A stretch of 64,000 nt of DNA from Ignavibacteriota bacterium (GCA_963801355.1 CAWDEM010000008.1:1856001-1920000); one strand, 5' to 3'. Shown: positions 1,775 through 38,475, counted from the first letter of the stretch. The notes: generated from the sequence alone by a model not told the origin. Translations and numbers: made by a program.

Positions 1775-1862
1775 GGGACATCTAGACGGATGTGTATGAT
1801 CCCGACGGCACGGAGAATCAGCAATACGGTGGCAATATAGGGTAGGGTGGCATGGGAGTCAA
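1775..1862 (-). promoter_or_regulatory. Sigma70-type promoter plus conserved kinase 5' leader (copy A)
   Basis: TTGACT (1862-1857), 17 bp, TATATT (1839-1834); leader homologous to 4813-4899 and 38388-38475. Confidence 0.75.
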
Positions 1863-2305
1863 ACGGGTGTCGAACAGGCAGGGATATCAGGGTACCGCAG
1901 GAGCCCCCAAGAGAAAACCCCGAAGCACGGGAGTTCGCACTTCGGGGTCATTCGCTCCGCGAGAGGCTTGAAAACTCGAACTACATTCTCCTCAAAATCC
2001 CCATTGAAATCCACAATCTGGGGCACGGCCAGCGGCTCATTTGCATGGATGGTGAGCGTTTGCCAAAGGAGCTGGGGGTCACAAGTCAAGAAATCGACAG
2101 TTTGCGTCAGGTCGGCTTGGTCCGGCCCCTGCCACAGAAGCCGGAACCGAAGATCCGCATCGACTACTCAGCCCTTCAGCAGACATACCGCCGGATGCTC
2201 GCGGATGGCCCCTTCTCAAACCAGACCGAACTCGCTCGTCACCTGGGAGTCAGCAGGGTCTGGGTGAGCAGGGTGTTGAAGGGAATTAGGAGAAAGGCCG
2301 ACTGA
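1847..2305 (+). CDS. Small HTH DNA-binding protein of mobile elements (start uncertain, possibly remnant)
   Basis: C-terminal [35 protein letters not shown]; 5' part overlaps an att-like relic and an opposite-strand promoter. Confidence 0.55.
1952..1983 (-). repeat. Degenerate copy of tRNA-Asn 3' end (att-like)
   Basis: tcgctccgcgag-aggcttgaaa-actcgaacta versus tcgctccgcgag-cagg-actcgaacta at 31535; upstream agttcgcac.tc.gg.tc also matches 5992-6009. Confidence 0.6.
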
Positions 2306-2340
2306 TGTTGGCCATTCGGTGATGGGATCCCGCGTGAGGT

Positions 2341-2463
2341 CGGCAGGAACTTCAGGGCCACTGTGCGCGTGAGCTTCAGGTCCTCGGCCTTGTAGACGAC
2401 GCCCATGCCGCCTTCACTGAGTTTCGAGAGGATCCTGTCGTGGGAAACAGTCTGGCCGATCTT
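2341..2463 (-). pseudogene. Second Ser/Thr kinase N-terminal stub (41 codons)
   Basis: [44 protein letters not shown] sits where the paralogues have ATG; homology stops after FLP. Confidence 0.85.
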
Positions 2464-2505
2464 GGGGCTTTCCACAAGCGTATGAAGTCTGTCAGGTGAT
2501 AGATC

Positions 2506-34846: not shown

Positions 34847-35004
34847 ATCCACTCTGAAAGTGGGGTATGCTTTCCAGAGCAAAATATTGGCACTCTAAAG
34901 TCAGATGGAATAAGACGGCATGTTTAAGACAAAGTAAGCCTCGTCTCCGGTGTGTATATTGTCGTGTCAACGAACAGTATACCACCACCAGAGGGAGGCT
35001 TACC

Positions 35005-35575
35005 ATGCACAGCGAATTTACAAAAGTCCAGTTCACCGGTCAACATGTCTACGTCGGGATCGATGTCGCACAGAAAGGTTGGAGGATCTGCATCTATGTT
35101 GGTCAGTCGTATCATAAGCGCTTCTCACATGGGCCGGACCCGAAAGTCCTGGTCGAGCACCTGCACCGGAACTTTCCCGGCGCGATCTACCACACTGTTT
35201 ATGAGGCCGGCTACTGTGGCTTCTGGATCCACCGGGAGCTCACGAGACTGGGAGTCCACTCCATGGTGATCCACCCGGCCGATGTGCCGACCACCGACAA
35301 GGAGCGGCACACGAAGACCGATCGTGTAGATGCAGCCAAGCTTGCCTGGGCCTTGGCCAACGGTGGCCTCCGCGCGATCTACGTGCCGGAGCGCGTGGCC
35401 GAGGAAGACCGGATGCTCGTCCGCATGTGAGCCACCTTTGTCTGCAAGCAGACCCGTAAGAAGAACCAAATCAAGGCGCACCTTCGCTGCTTCGGCGAGC
35501 AGCTGCCTGAGGACATCACGGACCGGTATTGGTCGCGGGCCTACATCCAGTGGCTCGAGTCCCCCCTGCCCACAC
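35005..35575 (+). pseudogene. IS110-family transposase, nonsense-interrupted and truncated
   Basis: DEDD RuvC-like motifs YVGIDV, YEAG, KTDRVDA; in-frame TGA at 35428 with homology continuing (KQTRKKNQIKAHL..WSRAYIQWL). Confidence 0.85.
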
Positions 35576-35792
35576 ATGGACCAAGGGCAATCTATCTCCC
35601 ACTGTGGAGAATGTGACTCCTCGGATTCTAACTGTGCGCACCACCCTTTTCGCACGTCGACAAATCTCCTCTGCTCACTTCATGATCGCACAGAACATCG
35701 CACTCAACTCATGATCCATGATGGCAGTTTGCAGCGGATGGAATATTGAAGAGGCACACGGGGGTCTCAGCGAAACCTCATCGTACTCGATG

Positions 35793-38387
35793 TCACCCAT
35801 ATTTTGCCAAAAGAGCCTGAAACCTCGGATTGCTCCTAAGCGGATCATAGATCGGGTCGAGCCGGAGGATGGGCACGGTGATGTATTTGGGTGCCTGAAG
35901 CGACAAAAGAAATTCCAGTTTGTCAAGTGCAGCGTCAAGTTTGCCGACCATGATATAGACCTGGGCCAAGGCTATGACTGGCCATACACCATCAAGGGCA
36001 TCCGTTGAGAGCGGAAGGAGCTCCACCGTAAGCTGTGCCTCCCGAAGGGCCGCCTCCCTCTGTCCAAGACCAGCGCAGACAATCGCTCGAGCGCGGTGAA
36101 GTATCCAGTCATCGGGTCTTTTGGCAATTTGAGGTTCTAAGAACACCCGGGCAGAATCAAATGAGGCAAACGAGCGCACCGAATCCTTCATGAAGCGGTA
36201 GATGAGTCCTTTCATTGGGATCATTTCTTCAGCAAAGGTCGGGTATGAGGGTATATCTGCAGGTGAATGATCCAGCCGGTCCAATGCCGATTGATACTTT
36301 CGTTCGTAGATATCCAGCAGGGTCAGCATTTGCCAGGCTTGGTACTGTGTTGGGGCTCGCTCAAGCGTGCTCCGGCTCTTCTCTGTGTCACCGCGCCACA
36401 GAAGGTACGTGTGAGCCTTGTTCACGTACGCGTGACGCTGGTCAGGCAGAAGAGAAATGGAACGGTCGAAATACCCTTCAGCCTCGGGATATTTGCCGAG
36501 TAGCTTAAGCGTGCCACCAATTTCCCTCGCAAGGGCATCCGCTTGCGGCTCGAGTGCGAATGCCTTCTTGAGACCTTCTAGTGCTTGTTCAAATTTACCC
36601 TGCCGTCTCCAAATGTAGGCAACATCGGCAAGAACGCCGCTCGCATTCGGGAGTTTCCTTTTGGCAACGTCAAATGCCTGGAGTGCCCGCCCATAGTCCC
36701 GGTAGCCGTAGTAGTAGTAATATCCGAGCGCGTGGTATGCCTCCGGCAGGTCCGCTTGGAGTGCAAATGCACGGTCAAGACAGCGCTTGGCCATAGAGAG
36801 GCGTTCCTTTGTCCGGTCGTGACCTTGCCAGTAGTACAGTAGATGAGCGTGTGAGAGCGCCGCATAGGCCAAAGCGAAGGTAGTATCAAGCTCAACTGCA
36901 CGTTCGAACATTTCGATCGCCATCTTGATTTTGGGGCCTTCGATTCCGCCGAGGGACCGACCTCGGAGATATGCCTGATAAGCGTCAAGGTTCTTCGTTG
37001 GAACCGCTTCAATAGTGCGTTTCTCACCTTCGCCCAATACGATATTGAGAGAGGTTACTACTCGCATGGCGATATCGGTTTGGACGCTGAAGATATCATC
37101 GAGCGTCCGGTCGATGTTATCTGCCCAGAGATGGGTGTCGCCTTTGACCTGGATCAGCTGCGGGGTAATGCGGATCCTCTGGCTGCTCCCGGTCTTCACC
37201 CACCGGATGGTCCCTTCAAGGATATAGTCCACGCCGAGCTCTTGGGCAACCAGAGGAAGTGTCTTGGAGCTCTTCTTATACTGCATGGCACTCTGCCGTG
37301 AGATCACTCCAAGTGTGCTGATCGAACTCAGCCGTGAGGTAATCTCATCGGTGAGTCCATCAGCGAAGTACTCATCCTCGGCGGAGCCGAGATTCTCAAA
37401 GGGAAGGACCGCGATCATCTTCAGCCGAGAGGGTGATCCCTCTTGACGGGAGAGGAGAACATAAGCTACAAGAGCCAGAGCAACCAAGCCAGCGACAGTG
37501 CCGTACCAGAAGAGCCTTCTGTTTCTTCGGCGAGCTACGGTTGAACGCTGGGTTAGTGCACCAATCTGTGACGTAAATCTCGAACATGATCGAAGATCAA
37601 CCAGGACCTCATCCATGTGCTGGTACCGACCACGGGGATTTTTGGAAAGGCATTTCTGCACTACCCGATCCAGCTCCATCGGCACGCCTGTTCTAAGGGC
37701 CGTGATGGGCTCAGGCTCGGAGTTGAGGATGGAATACAACAGTGCATTCTCGTACTCCGCCTCGAAGGGTCGCTTTCCCGTGAGCATTTCATAGAGAACG
37801 ATGCCCAATGACCAAATATCAGTCCGGTGATCTGCCGGGTCTCCTCGCGCCTGCTCCGGGGACATATAAGCCGCGGTACCGAGCGTGGAGCCCGTCTTAG
37901 TCAGCATCGTTCTATTACTCAACTTGGCCAAACCGAAGTCCACAATCTTTACCACTCCCTCCGAAGTCACCATCACGTTGGCGGGCTTTATGTCCCTGTG
38001 GACGATCTCATGTTCGTGGGCTTTAGCGAGTCCCTGCGCGATCTGCATGGCTATCCCCACGGCCTCCTCGATCTTCAACGGCCCGCGCTCGATCTTCTTT
38101 TTGAGCGTCTCGCCTTCGTACAAATCCATGACGATGAACAACTGACCGTCGGGGGTTTCATCGATGTCATGAACATTGCAGATGTTGTTGTGTTGAAGCG
38201 AAGAGGCTGCCTGAGCTTCGTGTATGAACCGCTCTTTGGCTTCGGGATCAGTAGTAAGGGCCGGAGGGAGGAACTTGAGGGCGACGGTGCGTTTGAGGCG
38301 CGTGTCTTCGGCCTTGTAGACAACGCCCATGCCTCCGCCGCCAAGATGCTCAAGGATTCTGTAGCGGGAAACGAGTTTGCCGATCAT
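35793..38387 (-). CDS. Hanks-type Ser/Thr kinase with TM helix, TolB-N-like domain and TPR repeats
   Basis: GGGGMGVVY, HRDIKPAN, DFG, YMSPE; IAVLPFENL; TPR repeats. Confidence 0.95.
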   Translation of the reverse strand: MIGKLVSRYRILEHLGGGGMGVVYKAEDTRLKRTVALKFLPPALTTDPEAKERFIHEAQAASSLQHNNICNVHDIDETPDGQLFIVMDLYEGETLKKKIERGPLKIEEAVGIAMQIAQGLAKAHEHEIVHRDIKPANVMVTSEGVVKIVDFGLAKLSNRTMLTKTGSTLGTAAYMSPEQARGDPADHRTDIWSLGIVLYEMLTGKRPFEAEYENALLYSILNSEPEPITALRTGVPMELDRVVQKCLSKNPRGRYQHMDEVLVDLRSCSRFTSQIGALTQRSTVARRRNRRLFWYGTVAGLVALALVAYVLLSRQEGSPSRLKMIAVLPFENLGSAEDEYFADGLTDEITSRLSSISTLGVISRQSAMQYKKSSKTLPLVAQELGVDYILEGTIRWVKTGSSQRIRITPQLIQVKGDTHLWADNIDRTLDDIFSVQTDIAMRVVTSLNIVLGEGEKRTIEAVPTKNLDAYQAYLRGRSLGGIEGPKIKMAIEMFERAVELDTTFALAYAALSHAHLLYYWQGHDRTKERLSMAKRCLDRAFALQADLPEAYHALGYYYYYGYRDYGRALQAFDVAKRKLPNASGVLADVAYIWRRQGKFEQALEGLKKAFALEPQADALAREIGGTLKLLGKYPEAEGYFDRSISLLPDQRHAYVNKAHTYLLWRGDTEKSRSTLERAPTQYQAWQMLTLLDIYERKYQSALDRLDHSPADIPSYPTFAEEMIPMKGLIYRFMKDSVRSFASFDSARVFLEPQIAKRPDDWILHRARAIVCAGLGQREAALREAQLTVELLPLSTDALDGVWPVIALAQVYIMVGKLDAALDKLEFLLSLQAPKYITVPILRLDPIYDPLRSNPRFQALLAKYG

Positions 38388-38475
38388 GGGAAACCTACAC
38401 AGGCGTGTACTATCCCGACGGCACAAGGAACCAACGGTACGGCGGAATAATACGGAAGGGGCGCACGATAGTCAA
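38388..38475 (-). promoter_or_regulatory. Sigma70-type promoter plus conserved kinase 5' leader (copy C)
   Basis: TTGACT (38475-38470), 17 bp, TATTAT (38452-38447); leader contains tgccgtcgggat. Confidence 0.75.

Follow-up and report, generated by a model that had tools for sequence, protein, structure and literature searches.

A conserved promoter-leader cassette was found at three sites in a 64,000-nucleotide (nt) stretch of DNA from an Ignavibacteriota bacterium (GCA_963801355.1, CAWDEM010000008.1:1856001-1920000); this whole stretch is referred to as the window. The cassette runs from the -35 hexamer of a promoter, through a leader, to about position +9 of the coding sequence, and it precedes mainly genes of sensor kinases. 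It is very probably kept by purifying selection. The cassette is an undescribed motif that occurs family-wide, but it is not a demonstrated structured RNA. With a probability of about 0.45, the leader limits translation through a hairpin that occludes the Shine-Dalgarno (SD) sequence, together with a sequence-specific site for a putative factor. Leader positions are counted back from the start codon. The three copies (A, B and C) consist of the following parts.

1834-1862, minus strand: copy A promoter; TTGACT at 1862-1857, 17-nt spacer, TATATT at 1839-1834; 10 of 12 consensus matches
1775-1833, minus strand: copy A leader of 59 nt; ATG at 1774; predicted SD-proximal hairpin at about 1803-1775
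4871-4899, minus strand: copy B promoter; TTGACT at 4899-4894, 17-nt spacer, TATCTT at 4876-4871; 9 of 12 consensus matches
4813-4870, minus strand: copy B leader of 58 nt, type 1, with GGAG as SD; ATG at 4812; predicted hairpin at 4840-4814
38447-38475, minus strand: copy C promoter; TTGACT at 38475-38470, 17-nt spacer, TATTAT at 38452-38447; 10 of 12 consensus matches
38388-38446, minus strand: copy C leader of 59 nt, type 2, with UAGG as SD; ATG at 38387; predicted hairpin at 38416-38388

The initial annotation, made from the sequence of the window, had reported three TTGACT-N17-TATnnT sites, and all three were present at their coordinates on the minus strand. A consensus promoter scan returned exactly copies A, B and C as the best promoter-like sites of their regions, and with 9-10 of 12 consensus matches and a spacer of 17 nt they are of the sigma-70 type. 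Mean column identity of the three copies was 79% over 176 alignment columns. The distance between promoter and ATG, given earlier as 59-60 nt, was measured as a leader of 58-59 nt. An SD had been called clear in copy B alone; copy B has GGAG and copy A just UAGA, but copy C has UAGG at the SD position. The description of three kinase-TPR gene starts held for B and C, where Pfam analysis found the Pkinase and TPR families, but not for A, which opens a remnant of 28 codons. Of the kinase-TolB-TPR architecture, Pkinase and TPR were found in B and C, but no TolB domain was matched by Pfam at E<=0.001.

A hidden Markov model (HMM) of copies A, B and C matched 22 sites at E<0.01 in the source genome (G000; 4.8 Mb, 100% complete), with copies A, B and C themselves at about 1e-24, which shows a recurrence far beyond chance. 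The source genome has about 30 full kinase paralogues with 50-61% identity to B, and about 16 of them carry the cassette leader when upstream sequences are compared by eye. Downstream members of tandem kinase pairs lack the leader, and some other paralogues have different leaders.

A sequence-only covariance model of the cassette (R1) was run over 68 genomes of the bacterial family. It matched in 34 of these genomes and in 16 of 29 genera, with up to 31 matches per genome; among the matches listed, 107 copies at >=50 bits made up the genome copy set. An order-level search covered 151 genomes. Among the 119 from eight other families, weak matches were found in 11 (E>=9.8e-5); these covered model positions 61 onward (38 onward in one), which is mainly or only the coding part, and neither the promoter nor the 5' part of the leader was ever matched in the 119 genomes. 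When 185,579 species genomes were scanned with a strict pattern, 7 stretches were found, 6 of them in metagenome-assembled genomes (MAGs) labelled Bacteroidetes, Bacteroidota or Ignavibacteriota; the seventh, in a Bradyrhizobium MAG, may be due to chance. A looser pattern scan of metagenome contigs gave 90 stretches, and the 80 loci listed yielded at least 66 further distinct copies. The cassette-bearing organisms belong to the Bacteroidota/Ignavibacteriota group; they are uncultured and come from metagenomes of wetland, sediment and soil. On these sequence matches the cassette appears to be lineage-specific, with leader-spanning matches restricted to one bacterial family.

Comparison with synonymous sites of the kinases had been set beforehand as the test that could refute a function of the leader, and the leader was found to be the more conserved. 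For 1176 kinase pairs between genera, identity over alignment columns was 0.633 in the leader, 0.391 at four-fold sites and 0.497 in the spacer. For 12 paralogues of the source genome (66 pairs), identity at four-fold sites was 0.345 in codons 41-270, versus 0.308 expected by chance from codon usage, and was raised to 0.498 in codons 1-40. In global alignments of the same 12 paralogues, the region from -200 to -111 was at the shuffled baseline (0.545 vs. 0.555) and the leader had an identity of 0.708. Leader identity shifted just from 0.62 to 0.68 as protein identity rose from <0.6 to >0.8. Set against the four-fold sites, these values show that the leader is constrained and not merely young or homogenised. 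Within-genome pairs had a leader identity of 0.681 and different-genus pairs 0.640, and most copies of the source genome had an equal or better match in another genus; since identity within a genome is barely above that between genera, concerted evolution is not the cause.

The conservation profile of 98 non-redundant copies begins abruptly at the -35 hexamer, with nothing conserved upstream. TTGA of this hexamer was invariant wherever the base was present (96 of 98 copies, two having a gap). In the -10 hexamer, T and A were invariant in 98/98 copies and the final T was present in 97/98. A C-rich spacer and a G+C-rich discriminator (GCCGCCG) were moderately conserved. Peaks in the leader were UGCCG (-36 to -32), which at 1.2-1.7 bits was its best-conserved part, GG.AU (-29 to -25), CAC (-20 to -18), GUG (-13 to -11), AG (-9 and -8, the SD core) and CCC (-3 to -1), followed by AUG AUC GGC. 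SD motifs used in the source genome start at -13 to -9. The least conserved columns were -17 to -14, -21, -10, -7 and an indel at -5. Two leader types were distinguished, GUGGAGAU-UCCC (type 1) and GUGUAGGUUUCCC (type 2).

Variant leaders that are 25-50 nt longer, with the addition lying between conserved core and start codon, were observed at five loci (L014, L019, L073, L111 and L115), two of them on contig C8 of the source genome, near 1790358 and 746175, and the remainder in other genomes. The insert holds a CCATGGATAGTGGATA-type palindrome, which in L073 is a perfect inverted repeat, and it may be a small inserted repeat element.

A hairpin was predicted at -31 to -1, for which the support is confined to thermodynamics and conserved complementarity. 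For the segment from -31 to +2, the minimum free energy averaged -9.67 kcal/mol in 90 copies; relative to mononucleotide shuffles, z averaged -2.23 and lay below -1 in 81% of them. Against dinucleotide shuffles, z of 16 copies of the source genome ranged from -3.59 to +0.90 with a mean of -1.5 and was <=-2 in 7/16. The fold energy was -6.6 kcal/mol for copy A (z -0.31; outer stem GGGA:UCCC present), -11.0 kcal/mol for copy B (z -2.41) and -11.7 kcal/mol for copy C (z -2.09). The outer stem abutted AUG in 14 of the 16 copies, and an inner CAC:GUG-type stem was present in about 11. The SD window was unpaired with a probability of 0.289, and in a control set of 150 genes that have an SD this value was 0.422 (p=7e-5). 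In the predicted folds, the SD and the start region are thus paired in a local hairpin more stable than chance.

Native 5' and 3' halves folded 1.16 kcal/mol better than between-copy chimeras (p=1.5e-4, with copies that are not independent). Hairpin cells were paired in 87%, versus 73% under a tree-aware null (P=0.01). In an unbiased alignment (A5), 80-82% of hairpin cells were paired versus 35-53% for slid partners, an excess that is partly expected, as the structure was read from these sequences. Loop and bulge columns were the most variable and stems the most conserved. Among the hairpin pairs, G-U was counted 108 times and A-C 45 times, which favours a sense-strand RNA. Some copies (L004, L006, L007 and L012) keep the hairpin by a shifted register, and such shifts would hide compensation from column-wise tests.

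The structure proposed in the initial annotation, a hairpin around a GCCGU loop, was not borne out. It needs different registers in copies A and B, showed no covariation beyond shuffles in 97 copies (both registers, and extended), and was absent from the minimum-energy folds of A and B. Covariation in the leader was examined with a home-made tree-aware null, in which parsimony changes per column on a FastTree tree were re-dealt onto the branches in 300 null alignments and pairs were scored by G with average product correction; no significant pair was found. Helices with significant covariation, as in a riboswitch-like structured RNA, were therefore not found in these copies. The summed score of the eight pairs of the -31 to -1 hairpin lay above all 300 nulls, with a hairpin chosen after seeing the data.

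A number of results weigh against a translation-limiting hairpin. RNAalifold returned four invariant pairs for an alignment of 17 sequences, and 0 pairs for those of 97 and 90 sequences and for either leader type taken alone. Folds of 92 nt (-56 to +36) had z of -1.07 to +1.06 in 8/8 copies and were not unusually stable. Two of the 16 copies of the source genome lack the hairpin, and copy A, L001, L005 and L010 have z above -1. The best pair of the tree-aware test, -21/-10, was not significant (E=0.33 with 96 sequences, E=0.27 with 148). It occurs in the states AU, UG, GU, CG, GC and UA, and it also covaries with the non-partner column -7, which suggests linkage between the two leader types and not compensation. 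The other seven pairs summed to 33.4 (P=0.013), yet partners slid by one column gave 44.2, so the summed signal is not specific covariation. The G-U excess came mainly from two pairs. Leaders ahead of open reading frames (ORFs) with an early stop were as conserved (0.769, 29 copies) as those ahead of open ones (0.756, 74 copies); the early-stop copies may be captured promoters or assembly errors. The untranscribed spacer showed moderate conservation as well (mean 0.75 bits), which places part of the constraint on the DNA.

The near-consensus sigma-70-type promoter (TTGACT-17-TATnnT), the G+C-rich discriminator and a 58-59 nt 5' untranslated region (UTR) form one unit, with transcription probably starting about 7 nt after the -10 hexamer. 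If the leader limits translation, the 3' half of the transcribed leader (-31 to -1) would fold into an imperfect hairpin. Its outer stem, GGRA(UC):(GA)UYCC, would end at AUG, and its inner stem, (U)WCAC:GUGK(A), would close a variable tetraloop. Since the 3' arm would contain the SD (GGAG or UAGG), translation initiation would be held low. The 5' half, with the core UGCCGU-GGRAUC, may be the site where a putative trans-acting factor or an alternative pairing modulates the hairpin, and all cassette-bearing sensors would then be set together. A stronger form is unlikely; it would make the 5' half (UGCCGU...GGRAUC) and the SD hairpin alternative states of a single regulon-wide switch, answering to one signal or to a dedicated RNA-binding factor. 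If it were true, translation of about 20-30 membrane sensor kinases (Hanks-type and histidine kinases) would be set at once.

The main rival of the translation-limiting leader is a DNA operator, which we consider rather improbable. The region from the spacer to about +50 would bind a family-specific transcription factor, as a repressor roadblock or an activator, and so co-regulate the sensor-kinase promoters; the nested dyad GGAATC..CAC-N4-GTG..GATTCC would be a protein-recognition palindrome and not an RNA hairpin. Such an operator agrees with the conservation that is continuous from the -35 hexamer through the untranscribed spacer (0.75 bits) and the discriminator, with the absence of significant covariation and with the empty RNAalifold predictions, and a near-consensus promoter, if regulated, would presumably need a repressor. 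However, G-U is the commonest state at one stem pair (51/97), and an excess of G-U over A-C (108 vs. 45) breaks the symmetry of a DNA site but not RNA pairing. The two arms are also unequal in length, by a bulge or internal loop, conservation continues to +9 with the SD included, and the hairpin segment is more stable than its shuffles. An RNA switch that senses a ligand or temperature would keep the RNA and let a 5' hairpin (UGAUUC..GGAUCA with a UGCCGU loop) alternate with the SD hairpin under a common signal. The two helices do use the same GGRAUC arm, and the alternative 5' helix has 78% of its cells paired, versus 35-49% with slid partners. This helix was borderline in the tree-aware test (summed G, P=0.07; paired fraction, P=0.067), and UGCCG, in its loop, is the best-conserved part of the leader. 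Against these points stand the lack of covariation beyond shuffles, the absence of the 5' helix from the minimum-energy folds of A and B, the lack of any Rfam family match even at E<=5, and an element of just about 53 nt of transcribed sequence. To our knowledge there is no precedent for a metabolite switch ahead of about 20 sensor kinases, and the switch is judged quite unlikely.

That the leader has no function, and reflects shared ancestry or a reusable or mobile promoter hitch-hiking with kinase 5' ends, is very unlikely. Non-kinase copies often keep the first kinase codons (MIG...) or a kinase remnant of 10-28 codons, which points to capture by recombination; this, the equal conservation ahead of broken ORFs and the raised four-fold identity in codons 1-40 (0.498) would fit hitch-hiking. 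Yet four-fold sites past codon 40 are saturated and the sequence upstream of the -35 hexamer is at baseline, while leader identity between genera is 0.63. Conservation starts exactly at the -35 hexamer, no within-genome homogenisation was seen (0.68 vs. 0.64), and three species of one genus share a remnant-plus-gene arrangement (L061, L095 and L070). Translational coupling through a short leader peptide, with a stop codon that overlaps the kinase start (AUGA), has hardly any probability. The CCA-UGA frame is stop-free across the leader in 90/98 copies, the other sense frames being open in 57 and 49 of 98, and A follows ATG in 81/98 copies. However, this frame has no conserved start codon, a 1-nt indel at -5 (37/98 copies) shifts the register between the two leader types upstream, and copy B and MV-type copies have ATGG and so no overlapping stop. 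For the same lack of a start and the break by the indel, and with an in-frame TAG in copy B, a leader peptide or an N-terminal extension was rejected.

Several other candidates were tried and rejected. An antisense ORF was dismissed, as the number of copies with an open frame (58-65 of 98) is nothing unusual. Phase variation of the Dam/OxyR type (agn43-like, at GATC sites) was dismissed, as the complete source genome gave no PF02086 match. UGCCG is complementary to a conserved CGGCA at +6 to +10, but the pairing showed no covariation (P=0.75); CGGCA was lost in at least 10 of 16 histidine-kinase copies that keep UGCCG (compared by eye). For a second class of leader, ahead of other kinase paralogues, a comparable SD hairpin was not upheld (four copies, z -0.5 to +1.1), and 225 one-mismatch genome matches for a trans RNA complementary to the UGCCGU-GGRAUC core were regarded as noise.

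The view that the shared promoter and conserved leader form a candidate cis-regulatory element with no named motif was sustained by Rfam. A search of the window with Rfam 15 at the gathering score returned only a group I intron and tRNA, and 16 leader loci gave 0 matches at E<=5. A full-text literature search found no paper on the cassette leader, which is no proof that none exists.

SD-sequestering hairpins of 5' UTRs include the RNA thermometers of the ROSE and fourU type. Like these, the predicted cassette hairpin is imperfect, ends at the start codon, carries the SD in its 3' arm and is of modest stability (about -10 kcal/mol), with an SD less accessible than in control genes. Unlike thermometers, the cassette has no Rfam thermometer match and no significant covariation; it has a conserved 5' half besides the hairpin; and it occurs at about 20 sites per genome ahead of signalling genes, not of heat-shock or virulence genes. 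In leaders controlled by CsrA/RsmA, hairpin loops carry GGA motifs, and one such motif lies at the SD. GGA-containing motifs are likewise found in the cassette leader and at its SD, and the source genome has a csrA gene; in contrast, the cassette motifs lie in stems and not loops, and type-2 leaders have UAGG at the SD. CsrA control was rejected, as csrA and the leader were unrelated over 68 genomes (both in 18, leader only in 16, csrA only in 16, neither in 18), and genomes with 12-17 cassette copies have no csrA.

Promoter reuse and putative mobile promoters are treated by Nijveen, Matus-Garcia and van Passel (2012, PMC3575422). As with such promoters, the cassette lies upstream of non-homologous genes within a genome and in relatives, namely genes of Ser/Thr kinases, sensor histidine kinases, GH2-family and UbiA-family proteins and pyridoxal-phosphate (PLP) enzymes. 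In contrast to such promoters, cassette copies are old and diverged (identity of 0.64-0.68) and not near-identical, the reused stretch takes in a leader of 58-59 nt and in many cases the first codons, and it is selected across 16 genera. No recent spread was seen among the copies, and no link to a mobile element in their flanks, which were examined in part and held only locus-specific tandem repeats. The cassette may work like an SD-sequestering leader, and it behaves like a reused promoter.

Large sensor-kinase families are common in bacteria, and little is known of how cells keep dozens of paralogues at suitable levels. With about 95 nt of non-coding sequence under selection across at least 16 genera, at about 20 loci per genome, the cassette is a clean candidate for controlling a signalling repertoire globally from one point. 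It can further serve as a ready test case for the reuse of promoters and leaders and as an undescribed motif for RNA and regulon databases, and its hosts come from habitats and groups whose gene regulation has hardly been studied. If the leader is a constitutive translation brake only, it would be a useful annotation rather than new biology.

The 107 genome copies (>=50 bits) precede 75 Ser/Thr kinase genes (19 of them interrupted by a stop within the first 100 codons), 16 sensor histidine kinase genes and 16 other or unknown genes. In 62 metagenome copies with enough downstream sequence, these numbers were 48, 3 and 11. Pfam analysis of four full non-Ser/Thr-kinase genes from other genomes found Reg_prop in 4/4; three of them add Y_Y_Y and HisKA or HisKA_3, and the fourth appears truncated. 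Several of the other copies have a short kinase remnant and then another gene, like copy A, and one such arrangement is common to three species of one genus (L061, L095 and L070). In the source genome, the cassette also lies ahead of genes of a UbiA-family membrane protein, a 770-aa protein and, weakly, a PLP enzyme. The element had been taken as a property of the kinase-TPR family, which is too narrow: it also precedes unrelated Reg_prop/Y_Y_Y histidine kinases and some captured genes.

Four of the genomes without a leader match were compared; two of one genus have 1-2 such kinases, and two of two other genera have 12-15. In the latter (G016, C118:14.5-62 kb; G077, C13:26-54 kb), most of the kinases lie in a single head-to-tail array (L146-L169), and short kinase 5' fragments (ILEKLGEGG...) were observed about 140 nt upstream of several array members. 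The upstream sequence of the array kinases is unrelated to the cassette. The varied downstream genes and the leader-less arrays show that the leader is a module of its own, tied to dispersed sensor-kinase genes. The cassette has been transplanted between two unrelated sensor-kinase classes and is occasionally captured by other genes.

Around the three copies, the following features were found in the window.

2-1663, minus strand: GH2-family gene (Pfam), downstream of the copy A remnant
1688-1774, minus strand: kinase 5' remnant ORF of 28 codons plus stop (MIGKTVSQYKILEKLGEG...), directly after the copy A leader
1916-1949, minus strand: intrinsic-terminator-like hairpin of 14 pairs with a T run, just upstream of the copy A promoter
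2329-2463, minus strand: second kinase 5' fragment of about 44 codons, AAG replacing ATG, no leader, between the stop of B and the terminator
2506-4812, minus strand: Ser/Thr kinase-TPR gene B, 768 aa from ATG 4812 (Pkinase 6e-57, and TPR families)
4916-4943, plus strand: perfect tandem repeat of 14 nt x2, ending 17 nt upstream of the copy B -35 hexamer
35793-38387, minus strand: Ser/Thr kinase-TPR gene C, 864 aa from ATG 38387 (Pkinase 4e-53, and TPR)

The terminator-like hairpin upstream of copy A indicates that the cassette begins its own transcription unit. No RNA run was found that contains the sequence of positions 1-5200. The fragment at 2329-2463 had 82% identity to residues 2-45 of B and matched model R1 at positions 78-133 only. 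Two dead kinase 5' ends (2329-2463 and 1688-1774, minus strand) thus stand in a row downstream of gene B, an arrangement that resembles the decayed rest of a tandem array, with its last promoter now in front of the GH2-family gene.

Another tandem repeat was observed at 38532-38548, upstream of the copy C promoter. Perfect, locus-specific tandem duplications of 13-17 nt were seen about 2-20 nt upstream of the -35 edge in about 12 of 106 cassette copies, and comparable x2-x3 repeats occur at other kinase promoters of the source genome. Any repeat of 8-25 nt was found in 18/106 copies, versus 24/300 random windows and 4/106 shuffles.

About 900 nt upstream of the copy C promoter, on the same strand, lies a full-length match to the group I intron (39395-39645, minus strand; RF00028, 86.3 bits, model positions 1-253); ARAGORN found no tRNA in 38600-40000 around it. 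Between the kinase genes, at 7034-29769 (minus strand), a long series of large ORFs of about 480-920 aa lies on the same strand; several have N termini that resemble signal peptides, and the series looks like a glycan-degradation cluster.

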